Origin: a virus
Reading direction: 5' to 3' (one strand)
UHGV virus genome: UHGV-0036741
Length of the DNA: 38,952 bases
The translations under genes and the position numbers were made by a program. Each line of letters opens with the position of its first letter. Position 1 is the stretch's first letter. Under the pieces are notes generated by a model that saw only the letters and a program-made list of their open reading frames with translations, was not told where the DNA came from and made no database searches. Shown one piece after another: positions 2,943 to 23,317 of this stretch.

Positions 2943-3031
2943 TACCCAAGGTAAACCGAAGGGGTAGGGCTGTTCTTTGGGTGACTTGAAGAGGGCTATG
3001 GGGGGTATACTGAAAGTTTAAACTATGAGAT
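2819..3031 (-). repeat. Terminal repeat (single collapsed copy, about 213 bp). The left genome end corresponds to minus-strand TCTCATAGTTTAAAC... starting at 3031.
   Basis: The minus strand from 3031 reads TCTCATAGTT.... The internal boundary ...TGTGTCCCT|ATCTGTTAC at 2819 is nearly identical to the T7 TR/unique boundary (CTCTCTGTGTCCCT|ATCTGTTAC). Confidence 0.45.
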
Positions 3032-3664: not shown

Positions 3665-5428
3665 TTACCAGTCAAGGAACCTATCGCTGTTAACGTCATC
3701 GTCTTCCCAATAGAGTTCCATACCGTCAACCATAGCGGTGACAACATGACCGTGGGAGTGGATGGCGTTCTCCATGTGTTCCTCAAGGAATGCCTCAAGG
3801 ACCTCAGCTTCCACCTTCACGCTGTCCAGTTCCATCGTAGAGCGTAAGAACTCGACACCTAATGCCAATGCGTCAAGTCGGTCATCGTGGGCCACAGCGC
3901 CCTTCTCACGAGCCATACGGGTCATCTGGTAGAACAGCGAGTAGCGAACGTCGTGCTTACCATCAGCGTCACGCGCAGTCTGGTAGTCCTCGCGGATAAC
4001 CTCATCACGAATGACAAGACGGTGAGTAGACAGGACAGGCTCTAAGGTATCACAAATGCGAAGCTCCTTCATGCCACGCGCTCGGATTTCCTCAAGCTGC
4101 GCTGGGTGATGTTTCAGTAGCACCGGGCTAAAGACCTTCCCGAACATACCGTCACCGAAGTTACTCTCAAAGACTACCGTCTGGACCTTCCACTGCTTGG
4201 CCTTCTTAGCGAGAGACTCAAGGGTTCTGTCGGAGTAACCATCACGGAAACCACCAGCTTCCATCAGGTAGATGTAGCCGTTCAACGTGAACAAGACAGC
4301 ATAACCAGTCTCATCCTTACCGCGACCACTAGGGTCAATCACTAGGATGCGCTGTTGGTACGCCCCGGAGTTCTGGCTCACGGAATGATAACTATGAATG
4401 TCATCACCCTTAAGGCCAACGTTAGGAAGCTCTTCATTGCGATTCTGACGGTTCGGAAGCCACTGGTAATGCATCGGGGCCTTCTCGAAGTCCAGACCGC
4501 ACACGATAGCGTCACGGAGGCGTAACGGGTACTTCTCGGCGTCACTAAGGTTCGGGTTGAGCATGAACTGTAAAGTGAAGCCAGCCTTACCGTATTCCAA
4601 CTCACGTTCCCGGAGGTCGTCCATATCGAATCGAATCGGGTCAGTAGGTTGGCCTTGTAGCATCTCGAAGCCTTCGTCGTACTCGCCCTTGAGCATTGGC
4701 GCTAAGCGCTCCCCATAGTACAGGGCCTCTTCGCGGGTTCGCGGATAGAGAGCAGGCCAGATGATTGTGGTGTACCCACGGTTGTCCTCAAGCTCCTTGT
4801 AGAGCGTCATTTCGGTCTGCGGTGTACCAAGGTAGATTACGCGGGAAGTCGGCAGAGGTTTGAGCAGAGCCGCAAATTCCTGTACCAGAGTCCACAGTTT
4901 CTCACGAGCACCTTGAGTGGCACTGTTCGATGGAATCTCAACGTCATCCGCAATGATGATATCGGCACGACTACCAGTCAACTGACCAGTAATACCTACC
5001 GACTTCACAGACGGAGAGTGGTCAGGTTTGGCGGGGCCAACATCGAAACTAATCACAGAGTCACGCTGACCGGGGCGAGGCTTAAGCTCAGCCAAGAAGG
5101 GCAGCAGGTCGATGATGTTCTTGATGAAGATGGAGTTAGCATCCGCACGTTCTTTCGACGCAGACACAATCAGAATCTTCAATTGAGGGTCACGCCATAA
5201 CGTCCACACAACGAACGCACAGGTGATGAATGACTTCCCGATACCACGGAAAGCCTGTAGGATAAACTTCTTGTTGTCTCCGTTAGCCAAGCATCGTGCC
5301 ATATCAATCTGACACTTAGTCGGCGGCGGGAGAGCCAGAGCCTTCCACAAGACGAACAGGAAGGCCACGAAGTCACCCTTAAGCTGCGCAATGATTAGCG
5401 CATTACGGTTTGCTTGGGTGTCGCTCAT
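3665..5428 (-). CDS. 19: Terminase large subunit / DNA maturase B (gene 19), 587 aa
   Basis: Near-identical to T7 gp19 over the whole length ([29 protein letters not shown]...). Confidence 0.95.
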
Positions 5429-8493: not shown

Positions 8494-8516
8494 TCTCCCT
8501 TTAGTGAGGGTTATTG
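8494..8516 (-). promoter_or_regulatory. T3-type promoter phi17
   Basis: TCTCCCTTTAGTGAGGGTTATTG. Overlaps the gene 16 stop, as in T7. Confidence 0.8.
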
Positions 8517-11500
8517 TTTCTTAGGTGGTTCCTTGATGCGAATCCCATTGGCCTCATAGATTTTCATAATGAGTTGCTGGGAGAGAGGGTCGTTAGGGAC
8601 AATCTCACGCATGGTGTTGAACATCCCGGTACGGAACTCCAACTCGGAAGCCTTGTTCGGTGAGGACAGAAGGGACGCAGCATTAATCACTGTACCACCA
8701 ACCTGACCAGCGAACCCTAAAGCCGGAATCTGCTCAGCCAGAGCGCCACCAATCATACCAGTGACCTGACGACCAGTGACCGCCTTGGTACGGTCTCGTT
8801 CCTCTTTCTCCTTCGGTAGAATCGTGGAGCGGGTGTACTTGTAGGTATCATCCCCAAGCATCCCAGCGAACATGTCGTAGACACTCAACGGAGCACCCAA
8901 GTGGGAACTACGGGAGATTGACGCATGGGCAATCATCTTCGGGTCCAAGGCGTTCTTGAGGTATTCCTTACGCTTGTGCTCTTGGAGCGCGTAAGACTTC
9001 AAGTGTGCCTGCCCAACGTAGTAACCACCAGCCAGCCCCATAGACAGCACAGAGGTCAGAGCCATGTCAATCGCTCGGTTGTTCTTCGTGGCCTCATAGA
9101 AGCTTCGGACGAACCGCGAGTTCAGTGACTTGATGACGAAGTTCTTGAACTGCATCACCATCTTGATGCTGGCACCGTAAGCCGTTGCATCCTGTGAGGA
9201 AACCTTATGAGGACGCAGCATGGTCTCATCGGCAACCTTATCAGCCAGACGCCACAGGTCCATAGTGCGCGGGTCATTAGCGAACGCCTGCTTGTCACGG
9301 ATAGTGAACTTGCCCTCAGCGTCACGAGTCGCGTGGTCACGGAACAACTGCTTAATCCCATTCCACTGCTCTTTGCTGATAGAGGCAGACTTAAGGTAAT
9401 TCGCTTTGCCGAACTTGGAGCCTTTACCTGCAAGGGCAGCACCAGCCACATCACCCAGCACACCCTGTCGGGCAGCGTCGAGAATGTAGTTAGTGGTTCC
9501 ATTAAGCATCTTCGTCCACGGAGAACGAGCGGCTAACTCTTGGGTCCCGAAACGAATCGTCCCGACAACCTCAGCAGCTACCACATTGGTGTCAGTGGAC
9601 TCACGCAGTCGTCTAACATGGTCCTCACGGCCCGGACGGATTAACTGGTCGAGTTCCTTACCGAACACCATACTGTGAATCTCCTTAATCTCGGAGGCAC
9701 GTAATGGCTTGCCACGGTTGACCCAATCGTTAATCACAGGGATACCATGAGTGACCGCAGAGACGTTACCTTTCGCCAGCATACCAGCAATCTCCGTGAA
9801 GTTCTGGAGAGGCATGTAGAAGTTCTTAGCGAAGAACGTTAGGTCATTCAGCGAACGCAAGGCTGTACCGAAAGCTCCCTCCGGGTCCTGTCGAGCACGA
9901 CCAGTGAGAATCTTAACGGTATCCTTAAGGGCTTCTACTTCACCCTTCATGGAGCCTTTACCTTCCGACTGCTTGTCCAAGGCCATGATTTCATCCTTGA
10001 GTTCCTTAGTGGTCTTACCGGAGCCGCCCATGATTGCAACGTCACCATCAACTCGACGGTCGTATGCAGGCAGAATGTCAGCCATATCGTAAGTCCTTAA
10101 GTCATTCACGGAGAACGTTTGACCGTCTGGAAGGGTAACAGCCATGTCGCTGTCGAACATGTTACGGGCCTCAAGGAAGTTGTTATTCTCGATACCGACC
10201 AGACCCTCAATGTTTTCCTCAATGATAGAGGACGCAGAGAACTGTTCGGTGTGGGAGATACCGTAAGCCTTGTCCATAGCGTGACGCTGGACCATCTCAG
10301 GGGTAACTTCCTGTACTGACTTGAGGCCGTTAAGCTCCATCAGATACTCATCGACACGTGCCTTGACTTCTGGGCGAGCACGATAGGAGGTCAGCCAGCT
10401 ACCAGCGATTGCCTCTTGGAGACCCTCGTTGCCGTAGCGGTTAATCATGTCCATCTTAGCTGCTCGGTCGTACACGTTAGGCACGTAGGTTCCCTTATGG
10501 CGACTGCCGGGGAAGATACTGACTGCCTTGGCGTTACCGAAGATTGCCGGATTCTCCATGATTTCACGCTTGAGGTCGAAGTGGTTTTTCAGAATGTCCA
10601 TCACCTTACGTTCACCTTTGGTCAGGTTCGCTTGGAGTTCTGGACGCTCGATAGCCAGCGCGGCTCGCTTGTAGATTTCCTGACGGATTTCTTTGCGGCT
10701 CATACTGGCCCCACCAGTGGAGAACTCAGGGTCCTTCATCGCGATACGCACAGCATCATAAAGCTGATTATAAGTGCGCTGATTGTTCGCGTGGAGTCGC
10801 TCCTTAATGTCAGAGGAGGTCGCACCGAACTTACCGGAAGTCCCTGACTCCATACCAGTCGGAGAACGAACGAGGTCAGACGCGATACGGCGAATGCCTT
10901 CATTCTCAGAGCGGAGAGTCTTAAGGCCAATCTCGGTGAATCCACCAAGGGAGATACCTCGTGCTGCTCGCTCAGGGTTGACCTGCTCGAACTCGCTCAG
11001 GGTCTGCGGGTTTAACGGGTTGGTGTCGCTAAGGATTTGACCTTGAGGCAACACAACGGCACCCGGCTCAGTCTCCAGAGACGAATACTGAACGCCAACA
11101 TGCTCACGGTCGAACACTCGGTTCTCGCTAGGCATCTTGGTCAGGTCCTCACCGCCTGCGTTAAAGGCAGACTCACGGGCTTCTAAGCGTTGTGCCATAG
11201 GGGCGAAGTCGTTGATAACCTCGGTCCCACGAGAGCGTCGAATGCCTGCGGCGATAGCGTCACTGATTGCACTCATGCCAGCACCGAACATAAGGCCACC
11301 CAAAGCTGCATCCGCGTAGTGAGCTTCACCGCCAGCCACAGAGGTACGCAGCGCCTCAGAGCCAACCGCAAGGGCTGCACTTTGAGTACCCACTACGAAA
11401 GCCTTGTTGACCACCTTGAGACCTTTACCTGCCACACCGACAAGCGGAACGTAACTCAGAGGGTCCACACCTGCGCCAATGATACCAGCAGTCAGCTTTG

Positions 11501-12473
11501 CGCCAACTCCCGCATCGGATGCTCGTGAGTCCATCTCATAGTTATCGTTAGCCATCTTAATGAGGGCGTCGAGGTTCTCAGGTGAACCGCCAGTTACCAC
11601 GTTGATGTAGTCTGGATTCTTCACCTCCTTACGAATACGGTCAAGCTCTTCTGGAGTCCATGTATGACTGTTCCAGCGAGTCGGAGTAATGGTGTCCTTA
11701 AACACATCGAAGCCATCATCAACACGACCAGCACGAAAGGCCACACCAAGTACGGAGTTGTGTAGCTCGGCACTTGTTGCATCCCCGATACCGAAGAAGG
11801 TTGAGCGTGAATTGAACTCTTCAACCGTTGTCCCGGTCTTCTCCCAAAAGTCCTTCGCGTAGGGAACATTCGGAGCCTTCTGCTCGGTCCCTTCCACCTT
11901 AAGGCCAGTCGATTCTGGAAGCTCAGTGCCTACCTTTCCAGCCTTTGCGATTCCAGCGAAAGCCTCATCAGCGGGGATTCCTTTGGCCTTTGGGGTGATA
12001 CCGCCGAACGCCTCAAAGTCTCCCTTACGCGGGCTGTTAGCCACATCCATAAGGTTGCGCATGTAGTTGCGACCTTCCTCAGAGATAGCGGCCCAATCGC
12101 CTTTATCGTAAGCCTGAACCTGCGGAGCACCGTTGCGTCCCTCACCTTGGTTGTACGCTAAGGCAGCTTTAAGCTCATCCCCATCGTATTTCCTGATGAG
12201 GTCACTCAGGTGTCGAGCGGCTGCATCCACAGCCAACTCAGGGTTATAACGGTCATCATCGTCACCGCCAGTAACGTTCAGGCCGAGACCTTTGGCTGTA
12301 CCTTTGGTGAACTGCATGAGACCCAGCGGACCTGTCGGGCTTTTGGCCTTCGGGTTGAAGCTGGATTCATTGAACGCCAGTTTACGAAGCAGGTCATAGG
12401 AGACCCCATGATTGTCTGCCGCTTTTTGAAATAAGCCATCGTATTCACTAGGCTTGTTCTTATCGTAGCTCAT
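8511..12473 (-). CDS. 16: Internal virion protein D (gene 16) with N-terminal lytic transglycosylase domain, 1320 aa
   Basis: gp16-like throughout. SLT motif GLMQFTKGTAKGLG near the N-terminus. Confidence 0.95.
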   Translation of the reverse strand: MSYDKNKPSEYDGLFQKAADNHGVSYDLLRKLAFNESSFNPKAKSPTGPLGLMQFTKGTAKGLGLNVTGGDDDDRYNPELAVDAAARHLSDLIRKYDGDELKAALAYNQGEGRNGAPQVQAYDKGDWAAISEEGRNYMRNLMDVANSPRKGDFEAFGGITPKAKGIPADEAFAGIAKAGKVGTELPESTGLKVEGTEQKAPNVPYAKDFWEKTGTTVEEFNSRSTFFGIGDATSAELHNSVLGVAFRAGRVDDGFDVFKDTITPTRWNSHTWTPEELDRIRKEVKNPDYINVVTGGSPENLDALIKMANDNYEMDSRASDAGVGAKLTAGIIGAGVDPLSYVPLVGVAGKGLKVVNKAFVVGTQSAALAVGSEALRTSVAGGEAHYADAALGGLMFGAGMSAISDAIAAGIRRSRGTEVINDFAPMAQRLEARESAFNAGGEDLTKMPSENRVFDREHVGVQYSSLETEPGAVVLPQGQILSDTNPLNPQTLSEFEQVNPERAARGISLGGFTEIGLKTLRSENEGIRRIASDLVRSPTGMESGTSGKFGATSSDIKERLHANNQRTYNQLYDAVRIAMKDPEFSTGGASMSRKEIRQEIYKRAALAIERPELQANLTKGERKVMDILKNHFDLKREIMENPAIFGNAKAVSIFPGSRHKGTYVPNVYDRAAKMDMINRYGNEGLQEAIAGSWLTSYRARPEVKARVDEYLMELNGLKSVQEVTPEMVQRHAMDKAYGISHTEQFSASSIIEENIEGLVGIENNNFLEARNMFDSDMAVTLPDGQTFSVNDLRTYDMADILPAYDRRVDGDVAIMGGSGKTTKELKDEIMALDKQSEGKGSMKGEVEALKDTVKILTGRARQDPEGAFGTALRSLNDLTFFAKNFYMPLQNFTEIAGMLAKGNVSAVTHGIPVINDWVNRGKPLRASEIKEIHSMVFGKELDQLIRPGREDHVRRLRESTDTNVVAAEVVGTIRFGTQELAARSPWTKMLNGTTNYILDAARQGVLGDVAGAALAGKGSKFGKANYLKSASISKEQWNGIKQLFRDHATRDAEGKFTIRDKQAFANDPRTMDLWRLADKVADETMLRPHKVSSQDATAYGASIKMVMQFKNFVIKSLNSRFVRSFYEATKNNRAIDMALTSVLSMGLAGGYYVGQAHLKSYALQEHKRKEYLKNALDPKMIAHASISRSSHLGAPLSVYDMFAGMLGDDTYKYTRSTILPKEKEERDRTKAVTGRQVTGMIGGALAEQIPALGFAGQVGGTVINAASLLSSPNKASELEFRTGMFNTMREIVPNDPLSQQLIMKIYEANGIRIKEPPKKQ

Positions 12474-18824: not shown

Positions 18825-18847
18825 CCTCCCTTTAGTGAGTGTTAAAG
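18825..18847 (-). promoter_or_regulatory. T3-type promoter variant (phi11-like) between Tphi and gene 11
   Basis: CCTCCCTTTAGTGAGTGTTAAAG, consensus with three substitutions. Confidence 0.55.
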
Positions 18848-18851
18848 TTGT

Positions 18852-18899
18852 GAAGCAAAAAACCCCTCAAGCACCCGTTAAGGCACCCAAGGGGTTTGC
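18852..18899 (-). terminator. Tphi late terminator for phage RNAP
   Basis: Minus strand AACCCCTTGGGTGCCTTAACGGGTGCTTGAGGGGTTTTTTG mirrors T7 Tphi AACCCCTTGGGGCCTCTAAACGGGTCTTGAGGGGTTTTTTG. Confidence 0.85.
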
Positions 18900-18910: not shown

Positions 18911-19456
18911 TTACTCAGTCGTGACAGTCAGCGTCATTTCAGCAGACTCAGTGGATACGTTTGTATCCTTCACGGTAGCTTTGAGTTTATAAACCCCAGC
19001 ATCAGACTCAGCGACCTCCGCGATAGACTTGATGTAGAAATCCCCACCGAAAGACTCACTGTCGATAACCTCACCGTCCTTGGTTAATTCCCAATTGCAG
19101 TCTGTACGGTCGATAGTGGCTTGGATGGAGAATGCTTCACCTACCTTAGCGGTAGCAGTCTCAGGGAAGTCCTTGACGAACTTAGGAGCCGTTGGGTTGA
19201 CAGTGACCTTGCAGGACGCCTTAACGCCATTTACAGCGGTAGCCGTAATGTCTGCGGTCCCATAGCCCTTGGCTACAACCATTCCGTCTTCCCATACAGC
19301 AACCTTTTCGTCAGAAGACGTCCAGATTAGAGTTTGGTCAGCATCGGAAGGTTGTACGGTTCCAGTGAGGGTACGAGATGCACCCTCAAGTAACGTCATA
19401 GTCTTTTGACTAAGCGTAACACCCGTGGGGTCTGGAATTACGCTCCCGCCTTTGGG
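18911..19456 (-). CDS. 10B: Capsid 10B-specific C-terminal extension (about 179 aa, Ig-like/Big_2-like domains), reached from 10A by a -1 frameshift
   Basis: Frame -1 relative to 10A is open from the slippery site through ...GGSVIPDPTGVTLSQKTMTLLEGASRTLTGTVQPSDADQTLIWTSSDEKVAVWEDGMVVAKGYGTADITATAVNGVKASCKVTV... to a stop at 18911. Confidence 0.7.
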   Translation of the reverse strand, partial: PKGGSVIPDPTGVTLSQKTMTLLEGASRTLTGTVQPSDADQTLIWTSSDEKVAVWEDGMVVAKGYGTADITATAVNGVKASCKVTVNPTAPKFVKDFPETATAKVGEAFSIQATIDRTDCNWELTKDGEVIDSESFGGDFYIKSIAEVAESDAGVYKLKATVKDTNVSTESAEMTLTVTTE

Positions 19457-20481
19457 AGCACGATAGCACCAGATGCTTCCGGTCGCAGGCCACCATGACC
19501 CATCGCGTACTTAGCGATAATCTGGTCAGCCTGGAAGTTAGCACGACGAGCGCGCTCCAGAGCCAAGTCTTTCAGCTTCACCGTACCAACGGCAGAGCGA
19601 TGCTGGAACAGGCCCACAACGTTGTCCAGAGCAACCTTAACGTCACCACCAGAGGTAGCCGGGAAGGCGTGTTTCTGTGCAGCCGGAGTGTCCTCGCGGT
19701 CATCACCAGCACCACCAGCGGTCAGGTGCGGAACCTCAACCACTTCGAAGCCCATCACGTTACGGATAGTACCACGCTCAGGGTCAATAAGAGCCTGATA
19801 GTTTGCAGCGTTAGGCATCAGAGCAGCCAGAATCGCGGAGTAGTTATCCGGGGTGGTGTAGAAAGTACGGTCAGCAGCCGGAACGTAGTTCTTGGTCAGA
19901 GACGCACGAGCGATAGTTAACTGTGCAATAATAGCTTTACCAAGCTCTACCGGGTCAGTCAGGTCGCCAGTGGTCGGCTTAACCAGAGTCAGTACGGTCG
20001 GCTTACCGAGACCCGCAATGTTCTCGTTGGAGGCTTCCGGCAGGTTAACCAGACCAGCCAGTTCTGCCAGTACAGCACCATCAGCAGCCATCGCCAGAGA
20101 TTCACCAAGCTGGGAGGTGTACTCAGCGCGAACATCGTAGTGGTTCATTGCGTCTTCGATATCGTAAATCAGCACGTCCGCAGTCAGCAGGCCATCAATG
20201 TGGATTACTTTCTCGGTGTGTTTGATATCTTTACGCTTATCATCGAGGTTCTCACCCGGTTTCAGGTAAGCTGCTTTGGTACGACCAATCACAGGGAACT
20301 GTGCGGATTTACCAGAAGCAATGGAGCGCATCATGTGACGCGGCATAGTTACGGAAGTACGAGCGAACGCGGTCAGGACTTCACCGCCGAACACTTTCAG
20401 GAACAACGCCAGTTTGTCCGCTGGGGACTGACCTTTACCCTGATTAGTACCGATCTGCTGTCCACCTTGCATGTTAGCCAT
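19438..20481 (-). CDS. 10A: Major capsid protein 10A, 347 aa
   Basis: T7/T3 gp10A-like. Strong RBS AAGGAGA. Preceded by phi10. Confidence 0.95.
   Translation of the reverse strand: MANMQGGQQIGTNQGKGQSPADKLALFLKVFGGEVLTAFARTSVTMPRHMMRSIASGKSAQFPVIGRTKAAYLKPGENLDDKRKDIKHTEKVIHIDGLLTADVLIYDIEDAMNHYDVRAEYTSQLGESLAMAADGAVLAELAGLVNLPEASNENIAGLGKPTVLTLVKPTTGDLTDPVELGKAIIAQLTIARASLTKNYVPAADRTFYTTPDNYSAILAALMPNAANYQALIDPERGTIRNVMGFEVVEVPHLTAGGAGDDREDTPAAQKHAFPATSGGDVKVALDNVVGLFQHRSAVGTVKLKDLALERARRANFQADQIIAKYAMGHGGLRPEASGAIVLPKAGA
19450..19456 (-). other. Programmed -1 ribosomal frameshift heptamer C CCA AAG (X XXY YYZ) at 10A codons Pro-Lys, 4 codons before the 10A stop
   Basis: Minus strand ...CTC CCA AAG GCG GGA GCG TAA. 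The -1 frame continues CCC AAA GGC GGG AGC GTA ATT ... without a stop. Confidence 0.65.
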
Positions 20482-21711: not shown

Positions 21712-23317
21712 ATGGAGCGTCTAAGCCAGCCTGTGCAGCAGCACCTTGAAGCGCTTCTGGACTTGAGGTAGCCATAGCGCCAACACCAGCACCACCCGCA
21801 GCAGCCGCATTCTCGATACCGACCTGTGCTGCATCCTGCATCGTAAGGGCCTGCTTCTGCTCATCCGTAAGGAGAATACCGGAGGTATCAATCCCGATGG
21901 CGTTCGCAATGCGCAACTTAATGACCGCGAGGTTAATGTCCGGGTCTCCCTGTAAAGGAGCCAGAGCGCCCCACGCAGCGATACAACGTTCCAGCTTATC
22001 GAGGTCTTGACCACGACCGATTGCTTCCAAGCCTGTACTGATAGTCGGCTCAACGGCTTCTTTCGGTAGCTCAGGAATCTGTGAGGTTGCTTGGAGTTGC
22101 TTTAAGAGCACACGAACCAGAGGCAATTGCAGTTCTTGAGACAGAATCGAATAGACGCCACCAAGGGTATCTTCCAGTTCGGACGCAACGTATCGAATCT
22201 CTTCGGCGGTAACACGCTCACCTGTACGTTGTACGGCAGAGTTCAGCATAAAGGCATACGACAAGCGCGCCTCAATCTGGTCACTCACAGCTTTCGCTAC
22301 GGTAAAGTCAGCGGACTTCTCCAGTTGCAGGAAGTCAATGTCTTCGCGACGACCGGGAACAAAGTCACCAGTCTGCGCCTTGGTTAGTCTACGGGGCTGC
22401 GTAATGCCAGCCGGGTTCACCAAGCCAATGACCTTAGCACTAATCATGCTCATCTTAACGATGGCCTCTTGGAGATTCTCAAGTGACCGTAAGTCACCCA
22501 AGTATTCTTCACAGTAAGAGCGACCGTAAGATTCACCGTCAATGCGCACCATGCGAACAGGGACCCAAGGAAGAGCATCAGGCGGATATTGGGCATCAGA
22601 GCCATCAATCTCCACGTCCTCTACTTCTTCGTACTTGAGGTAATCGCCGGACTCTTCATCGAGATACACATGAGTGTACACATCCACGAGTTCGTCCATC
22701 TTCTTCTCACCGCCAGCCTTCTCCACTGCGGACCGAACGTCCTCCGGTAGAGCACCGAAAGCAATCTGGTCACGAGTAACCATTTGAAGCACATTGCCGT
22801 ATGCGTCTCGTTGGACAACATAAGAAGACAATCGGTACAGCTTCATCGGGTTATAGGAGCCTTCTGGTTCCGGTAAGTAGAGCAGGGCGTTACCCGCTAC
22901 GACCAACTGCTTGAGGCACTCAAAGAGAGTCACTCGGTAGCTGTTGGATTCGATGTAGTTCATGATGATACGCTCAACCATTGACAGACCTTCGTCCACC
23001 TTAGCGAGTCCATCAGGGTCTCCCACAAGCTGTTTCGCCTCGTACTCACTAATGGTCAGCTTCATCCACGACTGCATCGGGAATAACGCCAGCATTAACT
23101 TAGAGGCCAGATTGTTGAGACCACGAGCACCTACAGCCTGCCACGGAGTCGTGTAGTCGGTAGATTCGTTATCGGACTCCTTCGGGAACAAGGACGGAAT
23201 GGTGTATTGCGCACAGTTTTCCGCACGAGTCTCATAGGCTCGACGGTCGTTCGTTAGGCGCTCATAGGTAGTCTTAGCTCCCTCTTCGCCTAAACCTGTA
23301 CGTTTAGAATCAGCCAT
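21710..23317 (-). CDS. 8: Head-to-tail connector / portal protein (gene 8), 535 aa
   Basis: T7 gp8-like in size, position and sequence. Confidence 0.95.
   Translation of the reverse strand: MADSKRTGLGEEGAKTTYERLTNDRRAYETRAENCAQYTIPSLFPKESDNESTDYTTPWQAVGARGLNNLASKLMLALFPMQSWMKLTISEYEAKQLVGDPDGLAKVDEGLSMVERIIMNYIESNSYRVTLFECLKQLVVAGNALLYLPEPEGSYNPMKLYRLSSYVVQRDAYGNVLQMVTRDQIAFGALPEDVRSAVEKAGGEKKMDELVDVYTHVYLDEESGDYLKYEEVEDVEIDGSDAQYPPDALPWVPVRMVRIDGESYGRSYCEEYLGDLRSLENLQEAIVKMSMISAKVIGLVNPAGITQPRRLTKAQTGDFVPGRREDIDFLQLEKSADFTVAKAVSDQIEARLSYAFMLNSAVQRTGERVTAEEIRYVASELEDTLGGVYSILSQELQLPLVRVLLKQLQATSQIPELPKEAVEPTISTGLEAIGRGQDLDKLERCIAAWGALAPLQGDPDINLAVIKLRIANAIGIDTSGILLTDEQKQALTMQDAAQVGIENAAAAGGAGVGAMATSSPEALQGAAAQAGLDAP

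Follow-up and report, generated by a model that had tools for sequence, protein, structure and literature searches.

A T3-type frameshifted capsid protein, 10B, with a predicted arm of two immunoglobulin-like domains in virus genome UHGV-0036741

The virus genome UHGV-0036741, a stretch of 38,952 nucleotides (nt) analyzed here in full and referred to below as the window, is that of a T7-like podophage read on the minus strand. Its structural half shares approximately 83% nucleotide identity with phages of Klebsiella, Shigella, Serratia, and Enterobacter, mostly of the genus Teetrevirus, and its capsid gene, gene 10, is that of a T3-like podophage of the subfamily Studiervirinae, near Teetrevirus. 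At the end of gene 10, a slippery heptamer opens a −1 frame that would extend the major capsid protein, 10A, into a longer form, 10B, ending in two immunoglobulin (Ig)-like domains. The locus is organized as follows.

19438 to 20481, minus strand: gene 10A, major capsid protein, 347 amino acids (aa), from the open reading frame (ORF) list and Pfam; stop codon TAA at 19440-19438.
20494-20489, minus strand: Shine-Dalgarno sequence AAGGAG of gene 10A.
19450 to 19456, minus strand: slippery heptamer C CCA AAG (−1 shift site), from the sequence, its X XXY YYZ phase, and its position four codons before the 10A stop.
18914 to 19450, minus strand: 10B-specific −1-frame coding sequence (CDS) of 179 codons (GGSVIPDP...TLTVTTE), from translation and in-frame codon adaptation.
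19205 to 19426, minus strand: Big_2 bacterial Ig-like domain, extension residues 9-82, after the conserved linker GGSVIPDPTG (Pfam PF02368).
18914 to 19195, minus strand: second Ig domain, I-set type, extension residues 86-179 (domain 2 below), from HMMER, AlphaFold2 (AF2), Foldseek, and motifs.
18911 to 18913, minus strand: 10B stop codon TAA, from sequence and translation.
18860 to 18897, minus strand: Tphi-type intrinsic terminator, from a terminator scan (17-pair stem plus T run).

The 10A protein is a Gp10A-like capsid protein (PF21703; E value of 6.9e-111, passing with 370.8 bits against a gathering cutoff of 27), and its gene is 89 to 90% identical in nucleotide sequence to those of the T3 group, T3 included. 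In the zero frame its final codons read CTC CCA AAG GCG GGA GCG TAA. An earlier annotation of the window from sequence alone, hereafter the original prediction, had proposed that ribosomes slip one base back at this CCCAAAG, and the anatomy it described holds throughout: the heptamer lies in X XXY YYZ phase at 19456-19450, four codons before the 10A stop; the −1 frame stays open for the 179 codons foreseen (19450..18914) up to a TAA at 18913..18911; the expected capsid species of about 523 aa follows by count (344 + 179 aa); and the peptide motifs quoted at the time are found as written. After a slip, CCC AAA has already been decoded and the next codon is GGC from 19450, giving a predicted 10B junction of ...GAIVLPK-GGSVIPDPTGVTLSQK.... 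Among the copies of CCCAAAG in the window, only that at 19456-19450 is in phase with a long −1 frame. A second copy in X XXY YYZ phase, at 11988-11994 on the minus strand, falls within a 1320-aa ORF (8511-12473) with the size and position of gp16; there the −1 frame closes after six codons, so that a slip would merely truncate the protein.

The −1 frame clearly codes for protein, because its Big_2 domain exceeds the Pfam cutoff, its first portion closely resembles T3 10B, and only in this frame is codon use favorable. Residues 1-85 of the extension (linker plus Big_2) show 80% identity to T3 10B. Codon use for domain 2 scores 0.76 in the −1 frame versus 0.41 and 0.56 in the others, and the former value falls within the range of 0.58 to 0.83 covered by the other genes of the phage. 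By calculation, a 179-codon frame would be open by chance with a probability of ~(61/64)^179, about 2e-4.

Comparison with relatives supports the frameshift. The sequence CTC CCA AAG G stands at an equal distance from the 10A stop in T3 (AJ318471) and phiYeO3-12 (AJ251805), the linker is conserved, and both records annotate the joined 10B CDS as a −1 ribosomal slippage product. The same heptamer is found in T3, phiYeO3-12, KPP-5, Sekstaphage-1, Keithstache, the metagenomic contig L095 (see below), and the T3-type loci of IMG/VR. In a survey of 80 IMG/VR capsid loci plus reference phages, all T3-type capsids carried C CCA AAG zero to four codons before the stop, followed by 84 to 93 open −1 codons, while the T7- and K11-type capsids carried G GTT TTC followed by 38 to 93 −1 codons. 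In both T3 and T7, gp10B is known to arise by −1 frameshifting, and virions carry both forms of the protein (PMC3276506, PMC5009743); T3 gp10B exceeds gp10A by 86 residues (PMC3276506), and C_CCA_AAG is highly shift-prone in Escherichia coli (PMC5009743). Judged by its site and frame, both the same as in T3, the 10B frameshift mechanism is not new. Transcriptional slippage at the heptamer was considered and rejected, since three consecutive A residues are too few for it.

T3, not T7, is the proper comparator for this protein, because the closest relatives are T3-type phages in which 10B already extends 10A by 84 to 93 codons including Big_2. This qualifies the description of the extension as unusually long in the original prediction: the statement is true against T7 (about 50 aa), while relative to T3 only one domain has been added, and extensions in Pseudomonas relatives reach 472 codons. 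The new part of 10B is residues 86-179, i.e., the second Ig domain.

The assignment of the first domain is firm. The Big_2-like motif noted previously is confirmed by Pfam (PF02368; E value of 1.4e-9, 38.2 bits against a gathering cutoff of 22.8, which it passes), and the domain also matches phrog_215 (E value of 4.6e-20) and Big_2 domains in the PDB (E value of 4e-6). For domain 2, a HMMER search of 1.84 billion representatives returned 32 matches, the best of which was the protein P0002 (1.1e-12, 52% identity), nearly all others being large multi-repeat proteins. All eight of the matches examined carried Ig_3/I-set/Ig_2 matches; among the seven of these others checked with Pfam, five had strong repeats of these families, and the two shorter ones matched them more weakly. 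Domain 2 also matched a titin Ig domain by sequence (E value of 1.3e-3). Modeled alone with AF2 from a two-sequence alignment, it yielded eight strands with a predicted local distance difference test score (pLDDT) of 88.2 and a predicted template modeling score (pTM) of 0.76, and Foldseek matched the model to 298 PDB chains at an E value of ≤1e-3, with template modeling scores of 0.65 to 0.80; titin, obscurin, MyBP-C, and NCAM ranked at the top, and antibody V domains were also present. The Ig signature motifs C-x-W (DRTDCNW) and D-x-G-x-Y (SDAGVY) are both found. As modeled, domain 2 has an immunoglobulin-superfamily fold, and the second beta-rich, Ig-like segment of the original prediction proves to be a real domain of this fold by HMMER, AF2, and Foldseek. 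A single-sequence AF2 run on the whole extension gave a pLDDT below 50 for Big_2, which is unusable, and weak tandem-Ig matches. Against the phrogs, domain 2 had no Hoc match, and only phrog_853 was reached, at an E value of 1.6e-3.

Domain 2 is rare. A word-indexed search of 5.8 billion protein clusters retrieved two members only, P0001 (a 162-aa ORF of the window) and P0002. Peptide-pattern scans for the domain in IMG/VR, JGI metagenomes, and GTDB genomes found none; in blastn searches of 50,697 phage records, the window's domain 2 matched only at the Tphi terminator, with nothing in the domain, and domain 2 of L095 likewise found nothing in the domain. P0002 is encoded by L095, a 31,953-bp Logan contig (SRR28250704) from another T3-like phage, which has the same heptamer and Big_2 extension and is the only other phage contig found with domain 2 (52% identity).

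Between the window and L095, domain 2 shows nonsynonymous divergence (pN) of 0.28 and synonymous divergence (pS) of 0.74, a ratio (dN/dS) of ~0.12, and a single one-codon indel. Because pN is far below pS and the only indel is of one codon, domain 2 must have remained a coding sequence through almost the whole of the divergence between the two phages. The corresponding dN/dS for Big_2 is 0.20. In a neutral simulation, the L095 domain 2 escaped any stop codon with a probability of ~0.22, and its openness alone is thus only weakly informative. Neighboring genes are less diverged between the same two genomes (pS of 0.46 and pN of 0.03 for gene 11; pS of 0.30 for 10A), the value for domain 2 being far higher. 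Its high divergence suggests either faster evolution or an exchange of alleles of a display domain.

The comparison with L095 also disclosed traces of domain 2 in T3 itself. When L095 domain 2 was aligned to the T3 spacer between the 10B stop and Tphi, the local score was 43, compared with a mean of 16.9 (standard deviation, 2.4; maximum, 28) for 2000 dinucleotide-preserving shuffles. The matching stretch lies at 2950-3028 of the T3 locus (L001; AJ318471, approximately record positions 22258-22336) and covers the ...SD(A/Y)GDYQ... region and the last strands. It corresponds to the 3′ half of domain 2 and can still be read as SDYGDYQ, its frame being broken by at least five indels. The same pattern is seen in phiYeO3-12 (L002) and Sekstaphage-1 (L091), while the KPP-5 group has no domain 2. 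Aligned directly, the window's domain 2 and the T3 spacer gave no significant match (127 of the 2000 shuffles), so that the relic is detectable only through L095. By this alignment, the "noncoding" spacer of T3 is a decayed relic of domain 2.

A gene-identity tree has the topology (window, [L095, (T3 group, KPP-5 group)]). Together with the T3 relic, it implies that the two-Ig 10B predates the T3 group and was not newly gained by the window phage. The two-Ig 10B is thus probably ancestral to the T3 lineage, and the two-Ig arm has been lost at least once. The relic is the most interesting by-product of the analysis: it indicates that T3, a classic phage of the laboratory, goes back to an ancestor whose capsid arm was longer, and it provides a function-based origin for a stretch of T3 previously taken as a noncoding spacer.

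An RNA element that could promote the shift was identified immediately downstream of the heptamer.

19413 to 19444, minus strand: candidate stimulatory hairpin, AGCGUAAUUCC / GGUGUUACGCU, from the RNAalifold consensus of eight distinct T3-type sequences.

The candidate hairpin starts 5 nt past the heptamer and has an 11-bp stem, with 10 of the 11 pairs formed in the window, and a 10-nt loop (free energy [dG], −11.6 kcal/mol; z score, −2.65). Across the alignment 96.6% of cells are paired, and one pair alone has a double change. Its spacing and size suit a classical −1 stimulator, a role that it may play. A larger, three-way structure spanning the first 107 nt (dG, −40.4; z score, −3.9) was dropped, as it did not persist in the alignment consensus, and Rfam gave no family match across the whole window at the gathering threshold. 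In L012 (IMGVR_UViG_3300038674_000011), the IMG/VR locus of a T3-type relative, a 15-nt in-frame deletion at ~1190-1215 directly follows CCCAAAG, and the 10A stop is now a TGA adjoining the heptamer.

On these data we propose the following course of events. Most ribosomes would halt at the TAA at 19440-19438, producing the 347-aa 10A. A minority would slip one base back at C CCA AAG, with the P-site tRNA-Pro and the A-site tRNA-Lys re-pairing on CCC AAA, possibly assisted by the hairpin 5 nt downstream, and would read 179 further codons to the TAA at 18913-18911, just ahead of Tphi. The resulting 10B of 523 aa would consist of the capsid body, a short linker, Big_2, and the I-set-type Ig domain, and a subset of the capsid subunits would bear a two-Ig arm on the head surface. 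In T7-type capsid proteins, the C terminus is exposed at the surface of the head, which is the basis of T7 display; because this terminus faces outward, the two-Ig arm would do so as well. Its most likely role, by analogy, would be that of a weak multivalent adhesin for carbohydrates on host surfaces, biofilm, or mucus. In phage K1F, foreign Ig-like domains placed on the frameshift-derived gene 10b product raised binding to epithelial cells (PMC13370021). According to a recent preprint, the extension of T3 is predicted to form an Ig-like domain and has been linked to interaction with mucin, no effect on adsorption to bacteria having been demonstrated (PMC13320782). The natural two-Ig arm can be regarded as the wild counterpart of the engineered display of Ig-like adhesins on K1F gene 10b. 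The analysis shows the anatomy of the sequence, the identity of the site with that of T3, the homology, the action of purifying selection, and how both domains fold; the occurrence and rate of the shift, the surface display, and the function are what we infer from sequence and comparison. Taken as a whole, a T3-type frameshifted 10B with a two-Ig surface arm is in our judgment the highly probable interpretation of the locus.

The principal alternatives to a fusion concern how the −1 frame comes to be read. Gene callers start it at an internal codon, as follows.

19397 to 19399, minus strand: internal ATG, start of the 162-aa ORF (P0001) in gene callers; probably not a real start.

Were this ATG genuine, the extension would be a separate gene specifying a free 162-aa Ig-domain protein with no capsid attached. 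The protein databases do contain exactly the 162-aa ORF P0001, and the equivalent ORF is deposited as a separate CDS in many relatives. However, no Shine-Dalgarno core lies at −18 to −4 of the ATG at 19399, compared with 19 of 23 long reference ORFs of the window that have one, and the 17 in-frame codons upstream (..IPDPTGVTLSQKTM..) are conserved as protein in the window, T3, the KPP-5 group, and as far as the Pseudomonas phages. Since the IPDPTGVTLSQKTM stretch is conserved before the first ATG, it must be translated, which is possible only via the frameshift. Moreover, the extension without exception lies in the −1 frame with respect to 10A and opens at a shift-prone site, T3 10B is an established fusion, and the "major tail protein" label carried by some of the separate entries traces to the similarity of Big_2 to tail-protein C termini. 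We therefore regard a free-standing gene as extremely improbable. The chance that the apparent frameshift is spurious, with a single ORF having been split late in gene 10 by an indel from sequencing or assembly, is practically nil: single-base assembly errors do occur, and L095 may hold one, but nothing specific points to one here, and the layout of a 10A stop with a −1 extension recurs in every relative examined (>90 independently sourced loci), three contigs (NCBI, Logan, and ENA) carry the identical 162-aa ORF, and the T3 frameshift is experimentally verified. As to annotation, the Big_2 extension ORF is commonly entered from the internal ATG as "major tail protein," "hypothetical protein," or "structural protein with Ig domain," e.g., at 1552-1785 of both L003 (KPP-5) and L092 (Keithstache), the tail label coming from the likeness of Big_2 to the C-terminal domains of major tail proteins (phrog_341, phrog_853, and phrog_41). 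The window extension stands in public databases only as the stand-alone 162-aa ORF and should be joined to gene 10 as its −1 product.

Several observations weigh against a functional two-Ig arm served by a stimulated frameshift. In the case of the hairpin, covariation was no better than in shuffled alignments (184 of 500), there being too little variation; the element overlaps sequence encoding a conserved peptide; and L012 is without its 5′ arm. Domain 2 remains under the Pfam gathering cutoffs for both I-set (PF07679; 18.7 versus 23.7 bits) and Ig_3 (PF13927; 19.4 versus 30 bits), and because of these scores it is termed I-set-like rather than a Pfam member. The L095 copy of domain 2 has 92 open codons, which lie in the +1 frame and hence out of frame with Big_2: one extra T at 3955-3965 (GCG CCT TAA GTT... 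versus GCT CCT AAG TTC... in the window) creates a stop right after Big_2. In the T3 group the domain has decayed, and T3 can grow in the laboratory without any gp10B (PMC3276506). An extension frame interrupted in close relatives had been named in the original prediction as an outcome that would speak against it; such interruption is indeed found, for domain 2 only (out of frame in L095, decayed in T3). Because of these two cases, the contribution of domain 2 may be small, and its repeated loss, together with the dispensability of 10B in the laboratory, suggests that the function of the 10B arm is accessory and environment dependent.

These same facts would favor a frameshifted 10B whose second Ig domain is carried along without selection and is heading for loss, with no function of its own: a 1-nt insertion cuts it off in L095, it survives as a decayed relic in T3, phiYeO3-12, and Sekstaphage-1 and is absent from the KPP-5 group, and T3 can do without 10B entirely. 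We consider this unlikely, given that domain 2 of the window is intact, in frame, and phage-typical in its codon use, that change between the window and L095 is mostly synonymous (pN of 0.28 versus pS of 0.74; dN/dS of ~0.12), that neither copy contains a frame-breaking indel, compared with at least five in the T3 relic, and that the core Ig motifs are conserved. The stop in L095 nonetheless calls for an explanation, as it falls at the same codon position after Big_2 in L095 (N-P-V-A-P-stop) and in the T3 group (N-A-A-T-S-stop). The extra T of L095 may be a recent mutation or an assembly error, the coincidence with T3 then stemming from a deletion junction in the latter. The stop might instead be ancestral, domain 2 of L095 having drifted undamaged, a possibility disfavored by the absence of indels there as opposed to the five or more in the T3 relic. 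It could also be that domain 2 is reached by a second, +1 recoding event in L095-type phages, where Big_2 ends in ...CCU UAA G (the T3 group has its stop at this codon as well) and domain 2 follows in the +1 frame. Domain 2 is undamaged in L095, with no frame-breaking indels and strong purifying selection when compared with the window, and decayed in T3. Were the shared stop ancestral, L095-type phages would have to follow the −1 shift at C_CCA_AAG with a +1 shift at CCU_UAA_G, and three isoforms would be made, 10A, 10B (one Ig), and 10C (two Ig), with the window phage representing a hard-wired fusion through the loss of one T; we hold such double recoding to be very unlikely.

The preferred reading, a T3-type frameshifted 10B with two Ig-like domains, thus describes a new domain architecture in a well-known recoding system, a smaller novelty than the original prediction held and one that does not overturn current understanding. 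The protein agrees with its counterparts in T3 and phiYeO3-12 in capsid family, heptamer, −1 frame, linker, Big_2 (80% aa identity), and the Tphi downstream; it differs in that T3 10B has 433 aa and one Ig-like domain, compared with 523 aa and a second, I-set-type domain here. The T3 10B extension is Ig-like and that of T7 is not; T7 gp10B is produced by a shift at G GUU UUC, with an extension of about 40 to 54 residues (PMC5009743). The T7 extension has a conserved LTPxQKAAxTRAxNKA motif.

A multidomain −1 extension with the same linker and Big_2 (45% identity) is present in Pseudomonas phages of the genus Pifdecavirus (vB_PpuP-Eino, and Phi-S1 with its "minor capsid protein"). Unlike in the window, their shift site would be ATC GAA AAG G, the extension has 472 codons, and Big_2 is followed by a GDSL/SGNH esterase-like domain, with no I-set Ig. 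In vB_PpuP-Eino (L004, 1504-2922), the order is Big_2, the GDSL/SGNH esterase-like domain (Lipase_GDSL_2; E value of 1e-9), and a C-terminal region with no Pfam match, which implies a predicted enzyme displayed on the capsid. In BIM BV-46 (L093) the −1 extension is truncated at 116 codons. In Phi-S1 (L094, JX173487) the −1 frame breaks after 21 codons, at ~1482-1560, and the annotated "minor capsid protein" (1525-2898) goes on in another frame; the break may be an indel in the deposited sequence. The loci of K11/KP32 type (L017-L061 and similar), which use G GTT TTC, have a −1 extension of 91 to 93 codons that is conserved and beta-rich (SVNTFSARTVTPSEYEVQTVAI..GDSLKV...FKLVVTN) and gives no Pfam match; it may represent another display domain outside the known classes.

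The variants of 10B thus comprise a short helical tail (T7), a beta-rich segment of 91 to 93 aa (K11), Big_2 (T3), Big_2 plus an I-set-like domain (the window), and Big_2 plus an esterase-like domain and a further region, 472 codons in all (Pifdecavirus). Judging by these comparisons, the 10B position is a modular slot: the frameshift-dosed C terminus of T7-type capsids would be a natural display site at which domains are swapped, stacked, and lost.

Parallels outside this family are functional or partial. T4 Hoc and Hoc-like proteins likewise place I-set-type Ig domains on the capsid surface, with a proposed role for Hoc in weak adherence to mucin glycans or cell surfaces, and P0016, a distant homologue of domain 2, matches Hoc-like phrogs. 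Hoc, however, is a protein of its own that attaches to capsids already assembled, whereas here the Ig domains would be fused to the capsid subunit and dosed by frameshifting; the resemblance is functional only, and domain 2 falls outside the Hoc family. Ig-like additions to a fraction of the structural subunits by recoding have been described in other phages (Fraser et al. 2006; Lactobacillus phage A2; Listeria phages A118, A500, and PSA) (PMC5009743). The proteins, hosts, and shift sites of A2, A118, A500, and PSA differ from those considered here, and a single Ig-like domain is usual in them.

Downstream of the extension, the Tphi-type terminator lies 13 nt past the 10B stop, is homologous to the annotated Tphi of T3, and closes the late capsid transcript. 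A T3-type phage promoter-like sequence (ACTTTAACACTCACTAAAGGGAGG) follows at ~18825-18852 on the minus strand, between Tphi and gene 11, and corresponds to the phi11 promoter annotated in T3.

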